Assembly: GCA_039924865.1 (NCBI GenBank)
Contig: JBDTAB010000163.1
Span: forward strand, 1,047-65,046
Length of the DNA stretch: 64,000 bases
Direction: 5' to 3'
From: Gemmatimonadaceae bacterium
GTDB lineage: Bacteria; Gemmatimonadota; Gemmatimonadetes; Gemmatimonadales; Gemmatimonadaceae
The position numbers and the translations under genes were made by a program. The notes under the pieces are model-generated. The model saw only the letters and a list, made by a program, of their open reading frames with translations, did no database searches and had not been told where the DNA came from. Below, piece by piece: positions 9,997 through 28,698 of this stretch. Numbering within the stretch: position 1 is the first letter of the stretch; each line of letters opens with the position of its first letter.

Positions 9997-11657
9997 TGCG
10001 ACGCCCCCGCCGGTTTGGGTGCGCGCTCGATGTGCGCTTTGGTCCACCGTTCACCAGTGAAGATCGACGGCACCGTGAACCCTTTTAACCACGGCTGCAC
10101 GGCGTACAACTCCGTGTAGAAGAACATGAACAGCATCGGTGCCTGCTCATGCGCCAGGGAGTCGGCTTCGCGGTAGAGCGCGAAACGCTTTTGATCGTCA
10201 GGCTGTCGCCGAGCTGCCGATACGACGCTGTCGAATGTGGCGTTGCTGAAGAACGAAACGTTTCCCCCAACGCCGCGATTTGCGCTGTGGAGCAGCGGAT
10301 ACAGAAAATTTTCGGCGTCCGGATAATCCGCGAACCAATCTTTGAGGGCGATATCGGTTTTGCCATTGCGAGCCGCCTCGCGCATGGACGACGCGTCTCG
10401 CTGCACGATCTTCGCACGAATGCCGACACGTGCCAGATACGCCTGAATTGTTTGCGCCATTCGCGGAAATTGATCGCTCTGCGACGTCCAGAGTTCGATG
10501 TCGATCCCATTCGGGTATCCGGCCTGAGTGAGCAACGTGCGCGCTCGCGCTGAATCGTACGGATACGGCTGCATGGATGGGTTGTATCCATCGAGAGATG
10601 GCGGAATGACGCCCGCGGCCAGCGTGCCTCGGCCGCCCATCAGTCGCTTCAGGATCATTCCACGATCGACCGCGAGGTTGATCGCCTGCCTCACACGCAC
10701 ATCGCGCAGCGGACCCCGCGTCGTGTTGATTGCCGCGTAGATAAGCCGTAATGACGGCGCCGATTGCAGCAGTGCGCGTTGCTCGTCATTCGCCTCCCAC
10801 GAGGGGGATTCCTGCGCCGGAACCTCGAGAACGTCCACATTGCCACTTTCAAATTCCGCCTCGGCGGTGCTCTGTTCCGGAATGATCCGCGCTTCCAGAG
10901 AATCGGCCAGTGGCGCACCTTCGTGATACTTCTCGTTTCGCGCGAATAGCAGATAGTCATCGTGATGCCACGCGACGAACTTCCACGGGCCGGTGCCCAC
11001 GGGATGCTCACCGAAGTCCGGTGGTGTGCGCATCGGTACGATCGCCGTCGCGGGCATTGCCAACATCTTTGGGAAGATCGCGAATGGCTCCGTGAGAGTG
11101 ATCTGGATTGTGCTATCGTTGAGCACGGAGAGGCCGGTGATACTCTTCGCCGTTCCCGCGGCGTACTCCTGTGCGCCACGAATGGGATACAGTGGCCAGC
11201 CGCGGCCGCCGCGCGTCGCGGGATCCAGGACCCGCTCCCACGAGTGTTTCACGTCGGCTGCGGAGAAGCGGGTTCCGTCGTGGAACAGGACTCCAGTTTT
11301 CAAGTGGAACGTGTATGTCACTCCATCGCCAGCAAGGTCCCATCTCGTGGCCAGATCCGGGACCACCTTCGCGTCGGGGGTGAATCGGGCGAGTCCGTCG
11401 AATACGTACGACACGGCACGCCCAGTAGGCACATCGGTGGAGAGCGCCGGGTCCAGCGATCTGGGATCGTAGCTGTCGCGCGAGTCTATGAGCAGGTGGC
11501 GATCGGGCGCCGACGAGCCACCGCAGGCGCCAAGCGTCGTGAGGGCGACGAGAGCCAGTCGTGCCAGCCGGGTGGTTCCGGCTGATTGGATGGGTCTGGC
11601 GCGTCGGATTCGAATAGGTCCGCGAAACCCTCGTGAGAGGGTGGCTGTTGACATCAT
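9993..11657 (-). CDS. ABC transporter substrate-binding protein, family 5 (peptide/nickel), probable lipoprotein
   Basis: 554-aa ORF with family-5 SBP-like sequence throughout. Signal region ends in the lipobox-like LTTLGAC. The exact start within the long N-region is uncertain. Confidence 0.85.
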   Translation of the reverse strand: MMSTATLSRGFRGPIRIRRARPIQSAGTTRLARLALVALTTLGACGGSSAPDRHLLIDSRDSYDPRSLDPALSTDVPTGRAVSYVFDGLARFTPDAKVVPDLATRWDLAGDGVTYTFHLKTGVLFHDGTRFSAADVKHSWERVLDPATRGGRGWPLYPIRGAQEYAAGTAKSITGLSVLNDSTIQITLTEPFAIFPKMLAMPATAIVPMRTPPDFGEHPVGTGPWKFVAWHHDDYLLFARNEKYHEGAPLADSLEARIIPEQSTAEAEFESGNVDVLEVPAQESPSWEANDEQRALLQSAPSLRLIYAAINTTRGPLRDVRVRQAINLAVDRGMILKRLMGGRGTLAAGVIPPSLDGYNPSMQPYPYDSARARTLLTQAGYPNGIDIELWTSQSDQFPRMAQTIQAYLARVGIRAKIVQRDASSMREAARNGKTDIALKDWFADYPDAENFLYPLLHSANRGVGGNVSFFSNATFDSVVSAARRQPDDQKRFALYREADSLAHEQAPMLFMFFYTELYAVQPWLKGFTVPSIFTGERWTKAHIERAPKPAGASQ

Positions 11658-11703
11658 AGGGTGAAAAGCGAGAACTTACCGGGCTATCATTAGAGCGTCA
11701 ATC

Positions 11704-13971
11704 GTGACCGCGGACATCATTAAGAGGATAATCACCGCGGCCACCGTGCTGGCCGCCTGCTCGGCTCTGCCCGCTATCGCCAGCGGGCAGGACCTTCGTT
11801 GCGGCGGTGGTGGCATTGAAGTGCGAGGACTCGACTTCAATGGGAACCACGCATTCACGGACGCCGAACTCGCCAACGCCATAGTTACTACACCTTCGGC
11901 GTGGGCTCGGCGATATCTGGATCTCCCGTTTTCGGCGAGGCGTTGCCTGGACGAGCAGGAGTTCGCCAACGATCGCTTGCGACTCATTCTGTTCTATCGT
12001 CGGCGCGGCTTTCCCAGCGTTACAGTCGATACCAGCCGGATTGACGCCGGTCACAATGGTGTGAGGGTTGAATTCAATATTGGCGAGGGGCCGGCGACCG
12101 TGTTGCGCTCGCTCACGATCGCGGGGCTCGATTCCCTATCGAACGCCACCGATGTGATGTCCGGCCTGCCGGTGACTGTCGGTGAGCGGTTCGACAGGAC
12201 CAGGATCGACGCTGCGATCGATCTCATGACGCGCCGCCTCCGCAATTCCGGCTATCCAGCCGTGAGCGCGCACAACAGCTTCGCGACGACGGACAGCGGC
12301 CTTGTCGCGTTGGATACTCTGACGATTACGCCTGGCACGCTTACGCGGTTCGGCCGGATCGACATATCCGTAACTCCGTCGCCGCGCAAAAAGCAGCACA
12401 TCTCTGATGAAACCGTGAGGCGGATCGTCGGTATCGATTCGGGGACGATATTTCGTGAACAGGCACTGATCGATGCCCAGCGCGCGCTGTATCAGACAGA
12501 TGCATACACGCATGTTGCGATAGCGCTGGATAGTGCCGGTGGTTCGCGCATCGGGCGTGACTCCATTGCGCCGCTGAACATCGCGCTCGCGGAGAACACG
12601 ATGCACGCGGCCCGCCTGGGAGCCGGTTACGGTACGCTCGATTGCTTTCGAGCTACGGGCGAGCTCGACGACTACAATTTCCTCAACGGCGCCCGACATC
12701 TTACGCTTCAGGGTCGCGTCTCCAAAATCGGGATCGGACGTCCGCTCGACGGTGCGCCGGCATTGTGTCCGCAGGCCAAGGCAGATCCTTACAGTGGGCA
12801 GCTCAACTATTACCTCGGCGCGACGCTGCGCCAGCCAGTTTTTTTCGGGCTGCGGACCGTTCCAACTCTCACCGCGTATACATCGCGTGTGAGCGAGTAT
12901 AGAGTCTATGTGCGCACGACGTCGATCGGTGGCGTTGCATCGCTGCAGTACCAGCGCTGGGCTCGTACTCCGGTCACATTCGGGTACAGCATGGACTTCG
13001 GACGCACCGAATCACAGCCCGCGCTGTTCTGCGCCGTGTTCAACCTGTGTACCGCGGAGGAACGCGACCGGGTGCAGAAGAATCAGCGCCTCGCGGTAGT
13101 GAACGCCGTCGTTTTGCATGACGCGACCGACGACGCATTAGCTCCGACGTCGGGCGGCATCGTGCGATTCGAAATTCGTCATGCGTCGCCGCTCGTGTTT
13201 TCGGACTCGGGGCTGCAATTCAACACCTTGCTCGGCGAGGCCTCTCGATACGTCTCTGTAGGTGGTGGGAACGTGCTTGCGATGCGCATTCGCGGCGGCA
13301 TGGTATTCAGCGGAAGTTTTCGGAGCAACTCAGGATTCATTCCACCTCAGGAGCGTCTCTACGCCGGCGGCCCCAGTTCAGTGCGCGGGTTCGCGCAGAA
13401 CGAGCTTGGTGCAGCTACGTACATAGCGCCTTCGTACTCGACGGTCACTGTAGTCGACTCCGCTGGCCACACTGACACGTACTTCCGGTATCTCGGCACC
13501 GCAAAACCGCGCAGAGTCGTTCCGGTGGGCGGGAATAGTCTCGTCGTCGGCAACGTCGAGTTGCGGCTGCGAAGCCCCTTCCTTCCCAACGTGCTTCAAT
13601 TCGGCTTGTTTGTGGACGCCGGAGACGACTGGAACCGGGGCGGAGCGAGTACATTCGGCGGATTCCACATCAAGGTTACGCCTGGCGTTCAAGTTGCAGC
13701 GCTGACTCCGGTAGGCCCCGTACGCGTGGTTGTCGGATACAATCCGTACCAGCAACCTGCTGGACCTCTGTACTACGAGAGCGCGGCGAACGCGGGTGCG
13801 CTCCCGTGTGTGGCGCCGGGCAACCAACTCCGGGTGACAGTGGACAACAGCGATCCCGCAAATCCAAAATTCGTCCAGGAGCCAGGAACCTGCTCAGGCT
13901 ACAAGCCGCCGCCAACGAAGTCATTCGGAAGCCGCCTGACTTTCGGGCTTGCCATCGGCCAGGCGTTCTAG
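11704..13971 (+). CDS. tamA: BamA/TamA-family outer membrane protein (POTRA repeats plus Omp85 barrel)
   Basis: 755 aa, GTG start, signal peptide, POTRA-like repeats, C-terminal barrel (VGGNSLVVGNVELR, terminal ...GLAIGQAF). Sits directly upstream of tamB and overlaps it. Confidence 0.85.
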   Translation: MTADIIKRIITAATVLAACSALPAIASGQDLRCGGGGIEVRGLDFNGNHAFTDAELANAIVTTPSAWARRYLDLPFSARRCLDEQEFANDRLRLILFYRRRGFPSVTVDTSRIDAGHNGVRVEFNIGEGPATVLRSLTIAGLDSLSNATDVMSGLPVTVGERFDRTRIDAAIDLMTRRLRNSGYPAVSAHNSFATTDSGLVALDTLTITPGTLTRFGRIDISVTPSPRKKQHISDETVRRIVGIDSGTIFREQALIDAQRALYQTDAYTHVAIALDSAGGSRIGRDSIAPLNIALAENTMHAARLGAGYGTLDCFRATGELDDYNFLNGARHLTLQGRVSKIGIGRPLDGAPALCPQAKADPYSGQLNYYLGATLRQPVFFGLRTVPTLTAYTSRVSEYRVYVRTTSIGGVASLQYQRWARTPVTFGYSMDFGRTESQPALFCAVFNLCTAEERDRVQKNQRLAVVNAVVLHDATDDALAPTSGGIVRFEIRHASPLVFSDSGLQFNTLLGEASRYVSVGGGNVLAMRIRGGMVFSGSFRSNSGFIPPQERLYAGGPSSVRGFAQNELGAATYIAPSYSTVTVVDSAGHTDTYFRYLGTAKPRRVVPVGGNSLVVGNVELRLRSPFLPNVLQFGLFVDAGDDWNRGGASTFGGFHIKVTPGVQVAALTPVGPVRVVVGYNPYQQPAGPLYYESAANAGALPCVAPGNQLRVTVDNSDPANPKFVQEPGTCSGYKPPPTKSFGSRLTFGLAIGQAF

Positions 13972-20374: not shown

Positions 20375-21186
20375 TCGATTCGCTGCCGCGGGGAGGCGCC
20401 ACGAGCCGCGCACGCTCGGGGCGGGCAACAGTTCGCGTGTCAATCGCGCCCCTGCAGGCTGATCCCAGCATCTCGGCATCGCAACTCTCGCAGCTGCTCC
20501 GCGGCCACCAGGCCGATGTGATCGACAGCGATGCTGCATGGCTCCGGCTTCGCGGCGCAGATGGTTATGAGGGATGGTGTCATCAAGGTTACCTCGACAT
20601 CGAGCCTTCGGCCGCTACGACGCCCCTCCAGTCGGCGTGGGGCGCCGAGCGACGCATTTCGGTTGGGTGTACGGTACAATCGGCAGCCGCCGGCATTGTG
20701 GAATTGCCGCTCGGCGCACTGCTGGACGCCGACGAGGAGGTGACGCGCGGGATCGCAATGAACCACCGTGCTCGCAGTCGCTACTTTGAGCCGGACGCGC
20801 AGTCGCTTGTGCAACGTGCGTTGGAGCTGTTCCGTGGAGCGCCCTACCAGTGGGGGGGTGTCACTCCATGGGGCGCGGACTGCTCCGGTTTCGTGCAGAC
20901 AATGTTCGCCCTGCACGGCACACAGCTTCCCCGGGATGCGTGGATGCAGGGGGAGCGCGGACGCGAAGTGTCCAATGAGATCATCGATTTCGCGCCTGCC
21001 GACCTGCTGCTCTTTTCCGATCGGGACGACGGCCGTCCCACTCACGTCGCTGTATCCACGGGCAGCACGCGCTGCATTCACTGCTCGATTGCGAATGGCG
21101 GTTTTGGGATCAACTCCCTTGACGGCAACGACCCGATCGCGCAAACACTCCGGGCCACGTTCCGCTTCGCGCGGAGAATACTCTAG
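20371..21186 (+). CDS. SH3b plus NlpC/P60 (C40) cell-wall peptidase-family protein, no signal peptide seen
   Basis: SH3-like N-domain (AWLRLRGADGYEGWCHQGYL). C40 core (YQWGGVTPWGADCSGFVQTMF, ...PTHVAVSTG). The ORF-track start at 20152 overlaps the zinc-protein gene. TTG 20371 is proposed and the start remains uncertain. Confidence 0.8.
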   Translation: MIDSLPRGGATSRARSGRATVRVSIAPLQADPSISASQLSQLLRGHQADVIDSDAAWLRLRGADGYEGWCHQGYLDIEPSAATTPLQSAWGAERRISVGCTVQSAAAGIVELPLGALLDADEEVTRGIAMNHRARSRYFEPDAQSLVQRALELFRGAPYQWGGVTPWGADCSGFVQTMFALHGTQLPRDAWMQGERGREVSNEIIDFAPADLLLFSDRDDGRPTHVAVSTGSTRCIHCSIANGGFGINSLDGNDPIAQTLRATFRFARRIL

Positions 21187-21220
21187 ACTCGGGGTGTTGT
21201 CTCGCGAGACGTGCGATGTC

Positions 21221-23761
21221 TCACGCTCTGAATCCGACGGCCGTGCGACTGTTGAGCCCACTCACTCGACCGGCAAGCGTAGCACCCTGTGAGCCACCAG
21301 ATAGCACCAAGCGGCGTTTGGCTCCGGGCGCGATGTGAAAATAATTGTCGCTCAACGTCCAGCCCGGCGCTTCGATCGCCACTGCAATCGCGAGCTCGTC
21401 GGTGCTCACGGTCAGCTCGTATGAATTCTCGCTCAGCAACGTGACCGACGTGCGCAGCTGCGCCATCGTCCGGATGGAGCCAATTCCCAGCGGGAAGTGA
21501 AACGATTCATCGAGCAACGCATCACCATTGCTTTCGCTGAGCGTCGCAACGACGGCGTCGTGATTGGGCCGCCCGAAGTGATACGCGTAACTGATGTCGG
21601 TGAACGAGCCCAGCAGTCGATCAGCTTCAAGGTTGACTGATGAACGGGCCCCGATGGTTACTGGAACCACAACGGTCGCGACTGAGACTGAGCCGTTGAA
21701 CAGCGCCAGCTTGAGCTTGGCGGAGAGTTGTGACGGGTGATCGTTGACCACGTTCAGTCTCAGGCCATTCAGTCCTTCGTCTGTCATCACGACCGCAACT
21801 GATCGGCAGGCACGCGCAAGATAGTGGTATGCCGCTTTGGGGGAGCCCTCGAAGTCGAGCACTCCCCATCCTGCTCCTGGATACACGTCGCGGTAAATCC
21901 AGACCAGAGCGCCATTACAAGTCGAACCATCGCGGCGCCACTCGGCGATCGTCTTCGCTATCAACTCTCCGCCCGCAACTCGCCCAAGCGCGAGGTAGCG
22001 CTCCGGGTCCGCATAACGCACTGCGAGTGGGTCGATACCAAACATCTCCTTCACGTAGTGATCACGGACGTCTTCGAAATCCCAGGCCGCGCCTGCGTCG
22101 CGTGTCACCCCACGTTTCCAGTCGGGGTGATGCCCGGCCCCCGCTGCTCCGCAAGACATGCGATCCACGAAATCGGGCTCAGGTACGTTCGACAGTGCCA
22201 GGCATTCGGAGGCGAACCGGACGCCGCTCATGCGAACATCGGACGCAGCCCGCAAATAAGGGCCGTATCCAAAGTAGTGACCGTCGCCTGCATTCACATG
22301 GAACGGCAGTGTGCCACCACTCGGAGAAGACGTCCAGTAAGGAACTCCGGGTGCGCACTGCGCCGAGAGCCTCGCGAATGTTTCGGAGAAGAGCGAACTC
22401 CGCCATTCCGACTCCGCAAGCCCCAGCATCGCCGCCTGCTGCTCGACCTCGCTGTTGCCGCAAACGAGCACGAGCGATGCGCATCCGCCGACTCGTTCAA
22501 GCAGTTGGGTTACTTCGCGCGCTGCGCTCGCAACAAATGCTTCGTTCGTGGCCGGATAGTCCATATTCGCGAACATCAGGTCCTGCCACACCGCGATGCC
22601 GAGTTCGTCGCACAAATCATAGAAGTCGTCATGCTCGTACACCATGGTGCCGCCAACGCGCAACATGTTCAAGCCGGCATCGCGCGCCAATTCAAGAGTA
22701 CGACGATACTCCGCCCTGGATCCGTGCAAGGTCAGAACGTCCGTAGGGCTCCAGCATGCACCGCGCCAGAAAATCTTCTGCTCATTGACCCGCAGGTCGA
22801 AGTCGCCGTTGTCCGACAGGAGGGTTACGCTGCGAAAGGCAACACGACCGAGTGCCATGACGACTTGAGATTCGCCCGCCGTGAACGTCAGCGTTGCATC
22901 GTACAGTGGCTGCTCACCATGCGTGTGCGGCCACCAGATCTGCGGTCTCGGGATGCGGATCGATGCGCTGATGACCAACTCACCGTTCGATCGACGAACC
23001 GCCGCCGCCCGTTCGACAGTTCCAATTCTCACCGCCGCGGCGGTAACATCCGTTCCGGCAGGTAGGCTTACACGTGCGCTAACCGAGACAATGCCGTCGC
23101 CCGAATCAATTCGTGCGTGCAGTCTCGATGTCGATAATCGGGGCAGTCCACTGGGCATGAACGAAACGGACCGCCATGGCCCAACAGGCTGCGCGTTCCA
23201 TGACCAGCTGGGCATGCGTCCGAGCAGTGTCGTACGAATCCAGCGAAGATTCTGATGCGACGCAAGGCGTGTACGCCATTTTGGACGCGGACGCTTTGTC
23301 TTCAACTCGGCGTTCAGCGAGCGGAACCGGATTGCCACCTCGTTGTCATGCAATAGCCAATTGCCGACGTCAACGACATGTGAGACGAACATGTTGTCGC
23401 TCGACAGCACGTGCGTTCCATTGATCCATACTTCAGCCAGCGACGCAAGTCCGGCGAACTCGAGCGAGCCACCGGAGTTGGGGGAATCGCACCTGAAATG
23501 GCAGCGATACCACCAGTCGAAATCGTCCAGATTGGTCGTGTCGCGCTGATCCCATTTGCCCGCGGCGCGAAGTGCGGCCGCGACCGTGCCAGGTGCGGAC
23601 GCAGTGAGCCATTGATCGTCTGCTACGCTGAGTTTGGACGGATCAATCGTTGATCCCGGGGCTACCTGCGCAAGACGCCAGACGGTAAGTGGAGAACCGC
23701 TTGCACCCGCACCAATTATGGATTCATTGGCTGCTTTTGAAGCCCGCTGATCACGTCCCAT
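21221..23761 (-). CDS. Glycoside hydrolase family 2 protein, beta-mannosidase-like, cytoplasmic
   Basis: 846 aa with GH2-like architecture. Candidate acid/base motif in CGNSE and nucleophile motif in RFASEC. No signal peptide. The ATG overlaps the upstream gene by 11 nt. Confidence 0.8.
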   Translation of the reverse strand: MGRDQRASKAANESIIGAGASGSPLTVWRLAQVAPGSTIDPSKLSVADDQWLTASAPGTVAAALRAAGKWDQRDTTNLDDFDWWYRCHFRCDSPNSGGSLEFAGLASLAEVWINGTHVLSSDNMFVSHVVDVGNWLLHDNEVAIRFRSLNAELKTKRPRPKWRTRLASHQNLRWIRTTLLGRMPSWSWNAQPVGPWRSVSFMPSGLPRLSTSRLHARIDSGDGIVSVSARVSLPAGTDVTAAAVRIGTVERAAAVRRSNGELVISASIRIPRPQIWWPHTHGEQPLYDATLTFTAGESQVVMALGRVAFRSVTLLSDNGDFDLRVNEQKIFWRGACWSPTDVLTLHGSRAEYRRTLELARDAGLNMLRVGGTMVYEHDDFYDLCDELGIAVWQDLMFANMDYPATNEAFVASAAREVTQLLERVGGCASLVLVCGNSEVEQQAAMLGLAESEWRSSLFSETFARLSAQCAPGVPYWTSSPSGGTLPFHVNAGDGHYFGYGPYLRAASDVRMSGVRFASECLALSNVPEPDFVDRMSCGAAGAGHHPDWKRGVTRDAGAAWDFEDVRDHYVKEMFGIDPLAVRYADPERYLALGRVAGGELIAKTIAEWRRDGSTCNGALVWIYRDVYPGAGWGVLDFEGSPKAAYHYLARACRSVAVVMTDEGLNGLRLNVVNDHPSQLSAKLKLALFNGSVSVATVVVPVTIGARSSVNLEADRLLGSFTDISYAYHFGRPNHDAVVATLSESNGDALLDESFHFPLGIGSIRTMAQLRTSVTLLSENSYELTVSTDELAIAVAIEAPGWTLSDNYFHIAPGAKRRLVLSGGSQGATLAGRVSGLNSRTAVGFRA

Positions 23762-24716
23762 ATGCGGCGGTCAGCTCCGCCATGGCGTTCGTCCAGCATG
23801 ATTCCATCCGGTCGAGCATGGGCGCGACATCGGCCGGCTTCCTTGTCGCCATCATGCGGGCGAGCTTGAACTGCATCGCCTTCGCAGCCGTGGCTATTTC
23901 GTAAAAATTGGTCGAGGCGTTGGAACGCGGAGCACCGTTATCCGATAACCAGTCGAGAAAACTCGATGCTACCTCGGCGCACGCGCCACACTGTCTGAGT
24001 GTGGCGAAGGCATACTTGTAAAACACCGGCATGTCTTCGCCAGCTAGCCATTCGAGATCCGACATGTATCGCGCGCGATAGGTCGCTACCGGATTGGAAC
24101 TTGGAATACGACCTAGATAGCCATTCAGCTGTTGGACTGCGACTGCCCTCAACTCGGTCGTCGAGCGACTCACCAGGCGGTCTAGTTTCGCTATTTCGGT
24201 GTATGGCGCCATCGCGGTTTCACCGACTGTGAAAATGGCGTCGAAATCGGCGCCCGCGAGTTCGAAGTAGCCGGCGCCATGAAAGTATCCGAGCCTGCGT
24301 GCCCCAAGATCGATTGCTTGCGCGCCAACCGTTGTCTTGGTGTGCTCGATCTGATACGACACGCCTGCGGTATCAGGCAGGTAGAACGAGTCCACCTCGA
24401 CTAGCGGGACACGCTGTCTCGCAATCTGCTCAGCAATCTGAATTCTGAGCGGTCGCCAGATTGCAAGTTCCTGCACTTCAATACCGTAAAGACTGCGGAT
24501 GTCGTCCAGCGACGGTTTGAAGAACGTCCACTGGTCGACTTCGAAGTCCATGGCAACGGTGAACGCCATGACTGCCGTGGGATCGAGTCGGAGCGCGTGC
24601 AGGAGTTCGATCCATAGATCAACATAGCAATTTGTCTCGGGCCAGACGCGCTCCAGACGGTGAAGGTCATGCGGCGTGTACGACGAGGCGTCCACGCCAA
24701 AGGCCTCCGCTTTCAC
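23751..24716 (-). CDS. DUF1839-like protein of unknown function
   Basis: 321 aa. GTGA overlap with the ligase stop. N-terminal ...RVWPETNCYVDLWIELLHAL. Family assignment is from memory of proteins that accompany aa:CP ligases and was not searched. Confidence 0.65.
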   Translation of the reverse strand: MKAEAFGVDASSYTPHDLHRLERVWPETNCYVDLWIELLHALRLDPTAVMAFTVAMDFEVDQWTFFKPSLDDIRSLYGIEVQELAIWRPLRIQIAEQIARQRVPLVEVDSFYLPDTAGVSYQIEHTKTTVGAQAIDLGARRLGYFHGAGYFELAGADFDAIFTVGETAMAPYTEIAKLDRLVSRSTTELRAVAVQQLNGYLGRIPSSNPVATYRARYMSDLEWLAGEDMPVFYKYAFATLRQCGACAEVASSFLDWLSDNGAPRSNASTNFYEIATAAKAMQFKLARMMATRKPADVAPMLDRMESCWTNAMAELTAAYGT

Positions 24717-25651
24717 AGTCCTAGCGTGGTCCTGACAGCTGATGGCCAGCGCGTGACGTCAAAGCCATGAGCTCTGAAGAGTGCGAGTGTGATCCGCTCA
24801 AGCCCGAATCCAACACACGCAGTGTGCGCCGGCATACCGTCGGAAGTCGTGATTCCGAAGGCGCTGCCGAAGTGGTCCTGATGATAATTGCAGGACACCG
24901 CTGCCGTGAGCGCCTCGCCGGTTGCGACCGGAACGACGAGCTCAAACTTGAGCGCCTGCTCCATCTGGCTCGCGGCGAGCATCGCGCCGCCGCGACCGAA
25001 GAACGGATCATTGGCAACAATAGGCTGCGCGTCGAGTCCAACGGCCTGAAGCATGGCCTGACCACGGTCCAGCCACAGATCGCGGAACTGTCGTACGCTT
25101 TCGGGATTTCCGATCCGTACGTATTCGCGCTGCCGAAATACCTGCATTCTCGCAGGATCGTCCGACGGCTCATAGCGGAAGCAATACGACTGGACGTCGA
25201 AAAGCCTGCCGTGGCGCGGGAGTACTCCAGCCGCCATCGGGTACAACGGATAGCACGCCGCCGGCGTCAAGACGAGATCCGTGTGCTGGAAAAGCGCAGT
25301 CCAGTCGGAGCCCGACTCCACCATCTGAAGCATGTCGCCGTGATCGCGCTCGTTTCCGCGAAACCCGTGTACGGTCCCGATAAGATGAGGAAACGATTGG
25401 AGGTAGCCACTTCTCTCGAAATCAGCTCGACCAATGACGGGAGGAAACCTGAAAACCTCGGCTCCCTGGTCGACGCCTGATTCGGTTACATAGCGATCAA
25501 ATCCGGCAAGCACGCGCTCGAACAGTCCGGACTTGCCGTAAACGCCCTGAACACCCGTGGCCGTGATGATGCCATTCGAGAGCAACTCTTCGAGATACGC
25601 CCGTCGCGCTTCTTCGACTTGGGTATCACGACCCAGCACGGCGTCAATCAT
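24713..25651 (-). CDS. Amino acid--[acyl-carrier-protein] ligase (class II aaRS catalytic-core homolog without a tRNA-binding domain)
   Basis: 312 aa. Class II motif 2-like CFRYEPS and motif 3 GFGLERITLALF. Zn-ligand-like LTPAACYP and VSCNYHQDHFG as in methanogen-type SerRS. Start ATG 25651 (8-nt overlap with the ACAD stop). The ORF-track start is 25687. Confidence 0.85.
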   Translation of the reverse strand: MIDAVLGRDTQVEEARRAYLEELLSNGIITATGVQGVYGKSGLFERVLAGFDRYVTESGVDQGAEVFRFPPVIGRADFERSGYLQSFPHLIGTVHGFRGNERDHGDMLQMVESGSDWTALFQHTDLVLTPAACYPLYPMAAGVLPRHGRLFDVQSYCFRYEPSDDPARMQVFRQREYVRIGNPESVRQFRDLWLDRGQAMLQAVGLDAQPIVANDPFFGRGGAMLAASQMEQALKFELVVPVATGEALTAAVSCNYHQDHFGSAFGITTSDGMPAHTACVGFGLERITLALFRAHGFDVTRWPSAVRTTLGL

Positions 25652-26813
25652 CCTTGGATACCAGCAACATCGCCGCATTAGCGCCATAAATGCGGTCGTT
25701 GTTGATCATCAGTGCCGCGCCATACGCGTCGCGTAGCAACCGGCCCAGTGAGGACTTCGAGTCTTCACGATACCCGGACATGCCACAGATCAGCATCGCC
25801 TGCCCAACGATGTCGACAACGGCGGTGGAGCAGTTGAGCTTGAGATTGTTCATGCGTATCGCGAAGTTCATCGCTGACAATGCGTCCGCGTCGTGCATGA
25901 TCGATTCAAAGTCACGCACCGAATCGTTTACCACGGAGCGCATTGCCTGAAGCTTGCTCACCACCTCGGCCAATCTGACGCTTGCCGCAGGAGTCTTGCC
26001 CGGGCTCTTGCGCGCCTCGCCACGAATGTACGCACGAGCTCGGCCGACGGCCGCAGTCGCAATGCCGACCCATAGCGATGCCCACACTATATGTGACACC
26101 GGGAGCATGGTTTGGCTGGAGACTTCGGCATATGCTGCCGGAACAATGTGATCCACGGGCGCGATCGCACTTAGTGTGAATCCTGGGCTGCAGGTTCCGC
26201 GAAAGCCCAGTGTGTCCCATCCACTCGTCCGGGTCAGAGTGAACTCGTCGCGTTTGAGGAGGACGATCACCTGATCGCTTGCCGGGGCGTCGGGTGACCG
26301 GCGCGCGGTGGCAAGGATGGCGTCTGCATGCTCGCCATAGGATATAACCGGCGCCTGCTTCCGGATCGCGAACGATCCATTGTCGCGCTCGATTGCGCAA
26401 ACTGACGAGCGCACGTCACCGCCGACGCCGATCTCGGACGTTGCGGACGCGATGAGTGCCTGTGTGTCCGCGAGCTCCGCCAGATAAGCAGCGAAGAACT
26501 GCGAGTTGCGCGCGTGGCGCACGATGCACGCTATCTGAATCTGGTGCATCGCGTATATCATCGCCGTGGCAGAGCAGTACTGGCCGAGTGTGGTGCATAT
26601 GGCGGAGATGTCCGCGATCGAGCACCCGCCACCACCGAATTCTGTCGGGATGAAAATCCCGAGCATCCGCTCTGCGCGAAGTGCGGCAAATGCTTCGGAC
26701 GGGAAGCGGGCATCTCTGTCTACCGCGTCAGCGAACGGTGCAGCAATATCGAGCCCAATCTGCTGCGCCTTTTCGAGTGCAGTGAAGGACCGACTTAACA
26801 CTGTGATTGACAT
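25644..26813 (-). CDS. Acyl-CoA-dehydrogenase-family flavoprotein
   Basis: 389 aa with ACAD fold-like sequence (TSEIGVGGDVRSS, C-terminal ...RLLRDAYGAALMINNDRI). Starts 7 nt after the carrier-protein stop. Confidence 0.8.
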   Translation of the reverse strand: MSITVLSRSFTALEKAQQIGLDIAAPFADAVDRDARFPSEAFAALRAERMLGIFIPTEFGGGGCSIADISAICTTLGQYCSATAMIYAMHQIQIACIVRHARNSQFFAAYLAELADTQALIASATSEIGVGGDVRSSVCAIERDNGSFAIRKQAPVISYGEHADAILATARRSPDAPASDQVIVLLKRDEFTLTRTSGWDTLGFRGTCSPGFTLSAIAPVDHIVPAAYAEVSSQTMLPVSHIVWASLWVGIATAAVGRARAYIRGEARKSPGKTPAASVRLAEVVSKLQAMRSVVNDSVRDFESIMHDADALSAMNFAIRMNNLKLNCSTAVVDIVGQAMLICGMSGYREDSKSSLGRLLRDAYGAALMINNDRIYGANAAMLLVSKDD

Positions 26814-26820
26814 TCCGATT

Positions 26821-27078
26821 CTAGTTCGCTGTGGTAGTCTGTCCCGTCGTCAACTCCTCGATGGACTCGCGTATGTAACGGATCGTCTCGAAGGTTCGAC
26901 GGCGTAGCATCCGCTCTGGAAACTCGACCTGGAACGTGTCCTCAAGGCCAAGCATGAGATTGACGGTCGCATGAGACGTCAGGCCGCAAGCGTAGAGATC
27001 CGCATCTTCGGAAATGCTGGAAACGTCCTGGTTCAGGCGGGCGTACTGTCGGAGTGTTTCGCGGATCTTCTCGACCAT
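26821..27078 (-). CDS. Acyl/aminoacyl carrier protein
   Basis: 85 aa from ATG 27078 (MVEKIRETLRQYARL...). Phosphopantetheine-site-like DLYACGLTSHATVNLM. The ORF-track N-terminal extension to 27198 is Arg-rich and is rejected. Confidence 0.8.
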   Translation of the reverse strand: MVEKIRETLRQYARLNQDVSSISEDADLYACGLTSHATVNLMLGLEDTFQVEFPERMLRRRTFETIRYIRESIEELTTGQTTTAN

Positions 27079-27357
27079 GGCAAGTATGCGGTTAGAACGC
27101 TTGTAGGCAGGCTTGCGGGCGCCGCATGGCGCTGCCGCAAACGGACACAGAGCTCGTCGTCCCGTTGGCCGGTTTACGCCCCGGTCGCAACGCCTCACTT
27201 GGCGATGAGCGGGTGGCCGTCCGAAGTCGCGACTAGGATGCTCCTGTGTCCCAGTATCGGTACGTTGGCCATCATAATTCAGGCAAAATCAGCCTGAGGA
27301 TAGCGACTATTTGACTGCTATTTTAGTCTTGCCCTTGTTCTGTGCGTCGCCCAGCTG

Positions 27358-27789
27358 TCAGGAGACCATCAGCGGCGAGGCGCCGTAGGCCAGAGGAGCG
27401 GAAGGGCCATTGACGAACACGCTGGTCCGCGCGACCGGCTCGCCATCCAGCTCGACGCGCATTGTGTACTGGCCGGACGAATCCAGCGGCAAGTCCACAA
27501 CGGCAATTATCGGCAGATCCATCTCGAGCGCGGCAGTGGGTCCGGCAGCAACATCGAGCTCGCCGCTGGACGTCCACAACTCGGAGTCGTTCGGGTTCAG
27601 CCAGTGGAAGGTCAGATGGTGAGTTCCGGAATCGGCCGGTCCTCCTTTCACGCGCACTACAAAGTGCGCGCGCGGGTGCATGGAGGGAAATCCGCCGACA
27701 TGCAGCGCGTCGAAGATTCCGAGGACGTTGAGCTTTCCTTCCTGCGAGAGATTGGCTGCGTCGGCGAATACTGCGAATGAGATGTGCAC
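27358..27789 (-). CDS. Hypothetical protein (143 aa, predicted all-beta)
   Basis: ORF with coding-like composition (MHISFAVFADAANLSQEGKLNVLGIFDALHVGGFP...). No motif I can name with certainty. Confidence 0.5.
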   Translation of the reverse strand: MHISFAVFADAANLSQEGKLNVLGIFDALHVGGFPSMHPRAHFVVRVKGGPADSGTHHLTFHWLNPNDSELWTSSGELDVAAGPTAALEMDLPIIAVVDLPLDSSGQYTMRVELDGEPVARTSVFVNGPSAPLAYGASPLMVS

Positions 27790-27813
27790 ATCCGAAAGAT
27801 ACTAGATTTGGTG

Positions 27814-28698
27814 ATGCCAGACCGAAGCGGCTCATTCGGCGTCACAGATATGTTGCTGCTCCTCATGGCGGTCATATGGGGAGTCAACTACGCCGTTGTG
27901 AAGTACGCGGGCCAGGCGTTCGGCGCTTTGACATTCACGTGGATGCGCGTGCTGATCGCGATGATCATGCTTCTCTGCGCGGTGGCTCTGCAGCGAAAAA
28001 AATTGCCGAGCCGGAAGGACATGTTGAAGTTGCTCGGCCTCGGGGTGCTTGGGAACGGTTTGTACCAGCTCCTGTTCGTGTTCGGTGTTGCCAGGTCGCT
28101 GGTTGGAAGCGCTGCACTCATACTCGCTTCTGCGCCGGCCTTCATTGCGATCCTCGGGCTCATTCGAGGGGTTGAGAGAGTCTCGTCGCGCGGCTGGGTA
28201 GGCGTCGCACTCTCCATTGCGGGCGTGGGTGTCGTGATGCTCGGCAGCACGTCAGCAAGCCCGAACAGCGGTGGTTCGATTACCGGGACCATCCTTGTTT
28301 TCTGCGGTGTGTTATGCTGGAGTGTCTACACCGTTGGCCTGCAGCCCCTCACACATCGTGTGGACGCGGTGCAGCTCAGTGCGCTCACCATGGCCGGTGG
28401 CATGATCCCGCTGGCATTTGCAACGCCCATTGCGATTTCCAGTCTTGCATCGGCTCACGTCACCCAGCTTGCATGGTGGTGCGTGTTCTATAGCAGCGTA
28501 ATTTCAATCGGAGTTGCTTATCTTTTCTGGTATCGCGGCATCCGTATTCTGGGGCCGACGCGCACTTCGGTCTATGGCAACCTTCAACCGATCGTAGCGA
28601 TTCTGACCGGATGGATCGCACTTGGCGAGGTACCAACGCCATGGCAGCTAGTCGGCACGGTTGGCATAATTGGCGGCCTGGTTTTGACCCGCACATGA
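27814..28698 (+). CDS. DMT-superfamily (EamA) transporter
   Basis: About ten hydrophobic helices in two EamA-like halves. Start uncertain (27784, 27814 or 27850). Confidence 0.8.
   Translation: MPDRSGSFGVTDMLLLLMAVIWGVNYAVVKYAGQAFGALTFTWMRVLIAMIMLLCAVALQRKKLPSRKDMLKLLGLGVLGNGLYQLLFVFGVARSLVGSAALILASAPAFIAILGLIRGVERVSSRGWVGVALSIAGVGVVMLGSTSASPNSGGSITGTILVFCGVLCWSVYTVGLQPLTHRVDAVQLSALTMAGGMIPLAFATPIAISSLASAHVTQLAWWCVFYSSVISIGVAYLFWYRGIRILGPTRTSVYGNLQPIVAILTGWIALGEVPTPWQLVGTVGIIGGLVLTRT

Follow-up and report, generated by a model that had tools for sequence, protein, structure and literature searches.

The window analyzed here is a stretch of 64,000 nucleotides from a Gemmatimonadaceae bacterium (GenBank assembly GCA_039924865.1, contig JBDTAB010000163.1), and within it lies a compact cassette of five minus-strand genes that begins with a small carrier protein (CP). 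The CP gene (26821-27078) encodes 85 amino acids and carries the phosphopantetheine-site serine, Ser35, in a GLTSH motif. It is followed by the gene for a 389-residue flavoprotein of the acyl-CoA dehydrogenase (ACAD) fold (25644-26813), with ACAD N- and C-terminal domains, and by the gene for a 312-residue amino acid:[carrier protein] ligase (24713-25651), which possesses the catalytic core of a class II seryl-tRNA synthetase (SerRS). The last two genes encode a DUF1839 protein of 321 residues (23751-24716; PF08893) and an 846-residue member of glycoside hydrolase family 2 (GH2) that displays Glyco_hydro_2_N2 and Ig_mannosidase domains (21221-23761).

The junctions between these genes are tight. 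A 7-nt spacer (AATCGGA) separates the CP and ACAD genes, the end of the ACAD gene overlaps the ligase start by 8 nt (ATGATTGA), the ligase and DUF1839 genes share 4 nt (GTGA), and the DUF1839 and GH2 genes share 11 nt (ATGGGACGTGA). This spacing had been described in the original prediction, made from the nucleotide sequence without database searches, and both the list of open reading frames (ORFs) and the junction sequences agree with it. Inspection of the junction revealed no in-frame alternative start for GH2 upstream of its conserved core, and the public gene call for a related Gemmatimonadota metagenome-assembled genome (MAG) of identical synteny (locus L084) gives the same lengths of 312, 321 and 846 amino acids and the same overlaps. 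The region also contains long plus-strand ORFs, among them 21824-23065 and 24767-25480, which were taken to be antisense shadows cast by strongly supported genes, the genome having 60% GC. The identities first given to the five genes are likewise upheld by Pfam and NCBIfam assignments, and for each of the five proteins comparison of the sequences supports both the family and the catalytic or cofactor residues.

The same arrangement is found far outside this lineage. One genome per GTDB species was scanned with the ligase alignment as query, which returned at least 583 genomes with a relative; the best 80 loci were taken, and 66 of these have enough flanking sequence for gene order to be assessed. 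The order CP-ACAD-ligase-DUF1839-GH2 on one strand is present in 62 of the 66, from Gemmatimonadota, Alpha-, Beta- and Gammaproteobacteria, Planctomycetota, Myxococcota and Acidobacteriota, and the arrangement is thus far beyond chance. Three Agrobacterium loci (L025, L060 and L072) have a five-gene order identical to that of the window, and a Chloroflexota locus, from Dictyobacter, holds the full set of five, its CP gene being on the opposite strand. DUF1839 and the ligase each form thousands of clusters at 90% identity in a protein collection, and RefSeq names cassette genes on rhizobial, Azospirillum, Burkholderia-group and Priestia plasmids. The operon-like packing proposed at the outset is therefore real, with its junctions confirmed and its order and strand conserved among related loci; GH2 and DUF1839 do co-occur with ligases of this kind in several phyla, and the lack of synteny among related genomes that had been named as a sign against the proposal was not observed.

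The neighborhood has also been reported before. In a note added in proof, Aravind, de Souza and Iyer described the same set of an acyl carrier protein (ACP), a redox enzyme, the conserved unknown Atu2574 and a glycosidase, and predicted that Atu2574, a DUF1839 protein, ligates an amino acid onto a cell-surface sugar's amino group, with the redox enzyme modifying the aminoacyl moiety (Aravind et al., 2010; PMC2922099). More recently, a supplement to the classification by Ozhelvaci and Steczkiewicz recorded that proteobacterial DUF1839 genes consistently adjoin GH2 (-1), an amino acid-[ACP] ligase (+1), an acyl-CoA/ACP dehydrogenase (+2) and an ACP (+3) (Ozhelvaci and Steczkiewicz, 2023; PMC10318531). 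A functional study of the cassette was not found in the literature searched, which yielded only the note of 2010 and the classification of 2023, together with reviews and a single co-expression listing; the sole mention of Atu2573 is in that list of co-expression hubs. Because the related loci share order and strand and the 2010 and 2023 papers describe the neighborhood, with the amino-sugar hypothesis in the first and the exact five-gene DUF1839 context in the second, the view of the cassette as an undescribed system was mistaken. Both the cassette and the sugar-aminoacylation hypothesis are already published, and the window provides one more intact copy, now from Gemmatimonadaceae.

The CP matches PF00550 (PP-binding) at 28.8 bits and the NCBIfam profile PRK07081 at 96.9 bits, above a cut-off of 72, and its G32 and S35 are present in 77/77 orthologues. 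Its ATG start fits the family, in that residues 1-80 align with positions 1-80 of the 83 in the PRK07081 profile and the orthologue alignments begin at residue 1. The ligase scores 457 bits against NF005479 (cut-off 357) and 297 bits (E 1e-87) against the Bll0957 structures 4h2w and 3mey; its match to archaeal-type SerRS is confined to the catalytic core, at positions 310-504 of the 518 in the profile, and comparison with profiles and PDB sequences revealed no tRNA-binding domain in the 312 residues. Judged by these similarities, it is a member of the Bll0957/Atu2573 family of amino acid:[carrier protein] ligases and not a tRNA-charging enzyme, as first proposed; the homology searches did not lead to the canonical tRNA-charging family that had been named as the outcome to fear. 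The 85-residue CP with its invariant Ser35, encoded next to the ligase, is the probable substrate for loading.

The catalytic residues of the ligase are conserved among its orthologues. R159 and E161 of motif 2 and the GFGLER segment of motif 3 (G281, F282, G283, E285 and R286) are present in at least 97% of 81 sequences, and C133, E176 and C279 in 81/81 each. The latter three align with the Cys/Glu/Cys set of Bll0957 and of the type-2 SerRS 3w3s, which the structure papers reportedly describe as zinc ligands. The original prediction had placed a zinc site at TPAACYP, FRYE and SCNYH. Its first ligand, C133, stands, and the second and third have to be moved to the aligned positions E176 and C279; the glutamate of FRYE (E161) is that of motif 2, and the cysteine of SCNYH (C254) is replaced by Phe in 58 of the 81 orthologues and in Bll0957.

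The closest characterized counterparts are the Bradyrhizobium ligases Bll0957 and Bll6282 and the Agrobacterium ligase Atu2573 with its CP Atu2571, with which the window ligase shares family, zinc-position residues, class II motifs and an adjoining small CP. The window copy differs from these systems in its phylum, Gemmatimonadota, and in having Gly281 where Bll0957 has Ala. Of the cassette ligases, 80/81 have Gly at position 281, those of Agrobacterium included, and the only Ala281 among them belongs to Dongia, whose locus contains neither DUF1839 nor GH2. The Bradyrhizobium and Agrobacterium enzymes are reportedly the work of Mocibob et al. in 2010 and 2013, and the characterized family members are said to use Gly or Ala. 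Bll0957 is reported to prefer Gly and Atu2573 to prefer Ala, and residue 281 is said to influence the choice between Gly and larger substrates.

The flavoprotein is less easily assigned to a reaction. Its AlphaFold2 model (pLDDT 89.2) matches true ACADs, the oxygenase TdsC and the amino-sugar N-oxygenase KijD3 alike in Foldseek, at a template-modeling (TM) score of ~0.8, and it retains FAD-type motif residues (T125, E127, W199, G203, R205, G206 and T207). The ACAD fold and the flavin motifs are thus present, and the catalytic Glu of alpha,beta-dehydrogenases is absent: the position of the YEG Glu in medium-chain acyl-CoA dehydrogenase (MCAD) is occupied by Ile in 55/78 sequences and Val in 23/78, with no acidic residue in any. 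His241 is invariant (78/78) and presumably lies near the alternative base position of the isovaleryl-CoA dehydrogenase (IVD) type, judged by eye against the IVD sequence. In the PDB sequence search and in the structural comparison, true ACADs come out at much the same rank as TdsC/DszC oxygenases and amino-sugar N-oxygenases. From sequence and gene context, it seems that the flavoprotein modifies the CP-bound aminoacyl group.

DUF1839 is the likely transfer enzyme of the cassette. The protein matches PF08893 at 370 bits, its residues 11-315 covering positions 3-311 of the 313 in the profile, and its AlphaFold2 model (pLDDT 91.6, pTM 0.90) is bipartite, with an alpha/beta, papain-like domain at the N-terminus and a helical one at the C-terminus (strands within 102-177, helices within 186-319). 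The only significant Foldseek matches of this model in the PDB are AziU2/U3, CtaG and CcbD (E 1e-6 to 1e-4, TM ~0.6, probability 1.00). For CtaG the match has an E value of ~4e-6 at TM 0.6 and 10-12% identity; for CcbD it has an E value of 2e-5 at TM ~0.6 and ~13% identity, with no signal at the sequence level. Asn29 and Cys30, both found in 77/77 sequences, are located at the start of the first core helix (30-41). K127, H146, D157 and E174 are equally invariant (77/77), D136 is present in 76/77, and position 128 is Thr in 66/77 and Ser in 11/77. The published classification independently counts DUF1839 among the papain-like proteins and gives its conserved site as Cys-(Thr/Ser)-His (PMC10318531). 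Together, the predicted fold, the invariant residues and the gene context suggest that DUF1839 is a CP-dependent transacylase, or amide ligase, with Cys30 as its nucleophile, and the presence of a CP gene in the same operon in 62/66 loci would fit transfer of an acyl group from CP to an amine. A conserved basic helix (K279, K284 and R287) may serve as the docking surface for the CP, by analogy to the Arg-rich helix of CcbD. The matches to CcbD and CtaG place the earlier description of DUF1839 as a possible acyl-transfer protein on firmer ground.

Two families of known enzymes provide the chemical precedent. In lincosamide biosynthesis, CcbD and LmbD take up proline from a CP as a Cys thioester and then pass it to an amino sugar, at the amine (PMC12945683). 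The lincosamide synthetase system (CcbD/LmbD, the carrier proteins CcbZ/LmbN and the adenylating CcbC/LmbC) therefore resembles the cassette in having a CP-loaded amino acid, a Cys acyl-enzyme of protease-like fold and an amino-sugar amine as acceptor; it differs in that its loader is an ANL-type adenylation enzyme rather than a homologue of an aminoacyl-tRNA synthetase (aaRS), in lacking both a flavoprotein step on the CP and a glycosidase, and in the Cys-His-Glu triad of CcbD, for which DUF1839 has the reported Cys-Thr/Ser-His. CtaG, of the closthioamide pathway, is a papain-like amide ligase dependent on peptidyl carrier proteins, with a Cys11-His128-Asp144 triad and a ping-pong mechanism between carrier proteins, and its structural homologues include AsbE and BtrH (PMC12865890). 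DUF6005, reported as a remote DUF1839 homologue, takes the place of AsbE in asb-like clusters (PMC10318531). CtaG, AsbE (petrobactin) and BtrH (butirosin) share with the proposed DUF1839 reaction a CP-bound acyl donor and ping-pong transfer to an amine. For comparison with the canonical Cys-His-Asp triad of CtaG, DUF1839 offers H146, D136, D157 and E174 as invariant or near-invariant residues, with Thr or Ser at position 128. The pathways of the CtaG type also employ ATP-grasp or ANL loaders within lineage-restricted antibiotic or siderophore clusters, in contrast to the compact cassette of the window, which is spread over many phyla. In the butirosin pathway, a flavin monooxygenase reportedly tailors an ACP-bound aminoacyl group, which BtrH then places on an aminoglycoside amine; this pathway offers what may be the closest analog in overall logic.

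The final protein, GH2, finds its best solved relatives among beta-mannosidases, first the Dictyoglomus enzyme 5n6u (213 bits, residues 46-816) and then those of Xanthomonas (6byc) and BtMan2A (2vjx), with which it shares a five-domain architecture, a full-length alignment and both catalytic glutamates, the acid/base and the nucleophile. These glutamates, whose retention had been predicted, are E438 and E519 and are found in 67/67 orthologues. The Asn of the "NE" motif, just ahead of the acid/base glutamate, is replaced by Ser (Ser437) in 65/67, and the Asp of the "WDW" motif never occurs, its place being taken by Cys (44), Ser (13), Thr (5), Ala (4) or Gln (1). In clan GH-A these two residues, which belong to the canonical -1 subsite, contact sugar hydroxyls, and since both are lost the specificity is probably not that of a plain beta-mannosidase, nor should the protein be filed as a canonical one. 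A further difference from the beta-mannosidases is that the window GH2 is encoded inside a carrier-protein operon and is, as far as sequence tells, cytoplasmic, because it has no signal peptide and a median of only 21 residues separates the DUF1839 stop from the conserved GH2 core among orthologues. Its N-terminus is not hydrophobic, and signal peptides and membrane segments are absent from all five cassette proteins.

The first three genes recur with other partners. A Dongia locus (L037) contains the CP-flavoprotein-ligase trio with a tandem alpha/beta-hydrolase (10897-12717) only, and neither DUF1839 nor GH2. In Priestia megaterium (L082; plasmid NZ_CP085444.1, 5115-13662) the trio, with a ligase 42% identical to that of the window, again lacks DUF1839 and GH2; the order there is acpS, the trio, a drug/metabolite transporter (DMT), an ATP-grasp enzyme, an alpha/beta-hydrolase, the alanine permease AlaP and alanine racemase, with ddl upstream. 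The permease, racemase and ddl genes alongside hint that the substrate of this variant could be alanine, possibly D-Ala. A Streptomyces plasmid (L083; NZ_CP108735.1, 722-14780) encodes a 399-residue ligase homologue, 34% identical and annotated "hypothetical", between an ACAD and an acyltransferase, with genes for a PP-binding protein, a 3-hydroxyacyl-CoA dehydrogenase, a ketosynthase-like protein and nonribosomal peptide synthetases (NRPSs) nearby. This layout resembles an aminomalonyl-ACP extender-unit pathway that would use an aaRS-like loader. In aminomalonyl- and hydroxymalonyl-ACP pathways of the zwittermicin ZmaG/H/I/J type, an amino acid on a stand-alone CP is oxidized by an ACAD-family enzyme. 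The window cassette differs from them in having no 3-hydroxyacyl-CoA dehydrogenase, acyltransferase, polyketide synthase (PKS) or NRPS, and between its ACAD and the one at the Streptomyces locus identity reaches only 27% over 156 aligned residues.

The description of the loading module as hard-wired to its downstream partners was consequently an overstatement, given that the trio also occurs with an alpha/beta-hydrolase alone or with ATP-grasp and alanine genes, and a homologue within a PKS/NRPS cluster. Its varied partners indicate that DUF1839 and GH2 are one of several downstream modules, and its persistence where these two are absent points to a flavoprotein that acts on the CP-bound amino acid. 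A tandem alpha/beta-hydrolase of ~600 residues (Hydrolase_4 with Abhydrolase_6 or Peptidase_S15) directly follows GH2 in ~37/80 loci across phyla, including L002, L070, L031, L034, L039, L005 and L027. Unlike many copies of the system, the window has no such hydrolase beside its cassette or anywhere else in its 64 kb; it is also absent from L001, and none lies near the cassette in the gene list of L084. A type II thioesterase located 3' of the cassette in Dictyobacter and the acpS of Priestia are typical of carrier-protein pathways.

Some copies have peculiar surroundings. On the Rhizobium leguminosarum plasmid pCC283b_4 (L081; 4527-9504), the cassette is flanked by IS110 and IS5, and an IS5 transposase gene lies ~70 nt past the remaining ~200-residue N-terminal fragment of GH2; this copy illustrates both the movement and the decay of the module. 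In Rhizobiaceae loci (L043, L065, L074 and others), the region upstream of the CP gene contains epmA (15 loci), epmB (13) and efp (9). EpmA is a PoxA-like paralogue of class II lysyl-tRNA synthetase and EpmB a lysine 2,3-aminomutase, so that two systems based on aaRS paralogues stand side by side; the adjacency probably reflects lineage synteny rather than function. A MAG labeled Klebsiella pneumoniae (L042; CAMAWH010000017.1) has a full cassette with a Bac_transf sugar transferase nearby, and its label looks doubtful, because its sequence similarity is typical of environmental Gammaproteobacteria.

Taken as a whole, the locus is on balance best read as an intact Gemmatimonadaceae copy of a widespread CP-dependent acyl-transfer pathway of four steps. 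In the first, the zinc-dependent, SerRS-derived ligase would adenylate a small amino acid and thioesterify it onto the phosphopantetheine of CP Ser35, a reaction that others have demonstrated for the family and that homology and conserved residues predict here. In the second, the flavoprotein would modify the tethered aminoacyl thioester, either by oxidation to an imino- or 2-oxo-acyl group or by oxygenation of the amino group. In the third, Cys30 of DUF1839 could take over the acyl group and hand it to the free amine of an acceptor, a step suggested by fold, invariant residues and context and akin to the ping-pong reactions that CcbD/LmbD (prolyl-CP to amino sugar), CtaG, BtrH and AsbE carry out. 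Finally, the acceptor or product may be a beta-glycoside handled in the cytoplasm, where GH2 would release the acceptor or trim the conjugate; GH2 is predicted to be capable of catalysis, and the alteration of its -1 subsite suggests a nonstandard sugar substituent.

Most likely, then, the cassette moves a flavin-modified small amino acid from a CP onto an amine, probably on a sugar. The sugar-aminoacylation idea of the original prediction remains the most plausible reading, its DUF1839 step now better supported by the CcbD and CtaG fold matches. A fuller version, in which Gly or Ala is oxidized by the flavin enzyme or N-oxygenated on the CP and then amide-linked by a papain-like ligase of variant triad to an amino sugar or glycoside, with GH2 dedicated to the conjugate, is offered tentatively, as a specific possibility with the balance of probability against it.

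Several points weigh against this pathway as a whole. Biochemical data for the ligase family reach CP loading and no further step, and a 2022 review describes the biological role of CP aminoacylation as unknown. For the flavoprotein, the searches favor neither dehydrogenation nor oxygenation. The link between DUF1839 and CtaG or CcbD, as the predicted model presents it, appears at the fold level only, and a link at the sequence level to these proteins, BtrH_N or DUF6005 was looked for and not found: a profile of 52 DUF1839 sequences retrieved no CtaG, CcbD or AziU chain from PDB sequences, and neither Pfam nor NCBIfam gave a BtrH_N or DUF6005 match, even at E <= 10. The top fold match, AziU2/U3, is an aziridine-forming enzyme and is not known to be a transacylase. 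The published active-site model of DUF1839 is a noncanonical, shifted Cys-Thr/Ser-His arrangement (PMC10318531). It is also unusual to find a glycoside hydrolase in a biosynthetic operon; the GH2 gene is missing in L017 and L041, and in the R. leguminosarum copy an insertion sequence disrupts it beside DUF1839. In the window, no polysaccharide, nucleotide-sugar, sugar-activating or glycosyltransferase genes adjoin the cassette.

Conceivably, the same chemistry could be directed at an envelope glycan precursor, such as a lipopolysaccharide, exopolysaccharide or capsule sugar with an amino group, and serve surface decoration in the manner of Dlt or AlmEFG, which place D-Ala or Gly from carrier proteins onto envelope glycolipids. 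Such a target was predicted in print from neighborhoods that include lipopolysaccharide genes (PMC2922099), and some alphaproteobacterial loci lie near genes for GT4 glycosyltransferases (11 loci), Wzz/GNVR (7), Bac_transf and flippase-like proteins. The association with glycan genes is nevertheless loose and lineage-restricted, and no envelope-polysaccharide genes flank the cassette in the window or in Gemmatimonadota relatives, where EamA, DUF6941, NlpC/P60, lgt and tsaD are found instead. The absence of signal peptides and membrane segments from the five proteins, the cytoplasmic location of GH2 and the lack of an encoded membrane transferase of the DltB or AlmG kind argue further against an envelope target, which we regard as rather improbable, though ahead of the remaining alternatives.

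Less probable still is a flavoprotein whose target is the amino group on the sugar or acceptor, after the example of the nitrososynthases KijD3 and DnmZ with their TDP-amino sugars, or one that acts after transfer. In the PDB sequence search, KijD3 (3m9v, 51 bits) and DnmZ (47 bits) score near the 62 bits of true ACADs, KijD3 is an equal structural match at TM 0.80, and the nonacidic residue at the MCAD catalytic-Glu position fits such an activity; yet the cassette encodes no flavin reductase partner, and the trio persists in Dongia and Priestia where DUF1839 and GH2 do not. The least probable of the alternatives, that DUF1839 is a papain-type thioesterase or amidase with which the cassette releases a modified amino acid or, together with GH2, degrades a glyco-amino-acid conjugate, could draw on the papain-like fold and invariant Cys, on the hydrolytic nature of GH2 itself and on a noncanonical Cys-Thr/Ser-His site that leaves the reaction type open, but it runs counter to the anabolic logic of ATP-dependent CP loading, to the amide-forming activity of the solved fold relatives CtaG and CcbD, with no protease among the significant ones, and to the transferase activity of AsbE and BtrH, the homologues named in the CtaG study.

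The value of the locus lies in the unsolved product of the cassette rather than in this particular copy. The role of SerRS-derived amino acid:[carrier protein] ligases has been an open question since 2010, and the comparisons presented here sharpen the model to an invariant CP-flavoprotein-ligase core, a DUF1839 protein whose modeled fold matches CcbD and CtaG, both recently solved, and a GH2 that has kept its catalytic residues and altered its sugar-reading ones. Identification of the product would tie an offshoot of the aaRS family to the chemistry of glycoconjugates or small metabolites, across hundreds of bacteria of soil, plant-associated and aquatic habitats. If the fuller, tentative version is correct, a phylogenetically widespread small conjugate of oxidized or N-oxygenated Gly or Ala with an amino sugar or glycoside would represent a novel category of primary-like metabolite, such as a cofactor, redox buffer or signal, and would explain the purpose of these ligases.

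The window cassette sits among housekeeping genes. Its upstream neighbors are tsaD, lgt, CYTH, HAD, EamA and DUF6941, and downstream are NlpC/P60, a sigma-54 activator-like gene, diacylglycerol kinase and TamB; the EamA-DUF6941-cassette-NlpC/P60 synteny is the same in L001 and L084. DUF6941 was considered as a sixth member of the cassette and set aside as a neighbor, conserved only in the closest Gemmatimonadota relatives, and no specific similarity was found that would link the EamA transporter of the window to the DMT transporter within the Priestia operon. The DUF6941 gene (27358-27789, minus) and the EamA/DMT gene (27784-28698, plus) are arranged head to head with called starts that overlap by 6 nt, and one of the two starts probably lies downstream.

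Between DUF6941 and the CP gene is a noncoding leader of 279 nt (27079-27357, minus), the likely location of the promoter. Rfam, consulted for a riboswitch clue to the amino acid, gave no match in 20800-28000 at E <= 1 and none window-wide at gathering scores. A scan for sigma-70-type promoters and terminators produced nothing convincing, its counts being no higher than in shuffled sequences and hence uninformative. Approximately 100 nt into the leader, a patch (AACGTnCCGATACTGG) is common to the leader of L001 in a two-sequence comparison, and this patch is a possible regulatory site.

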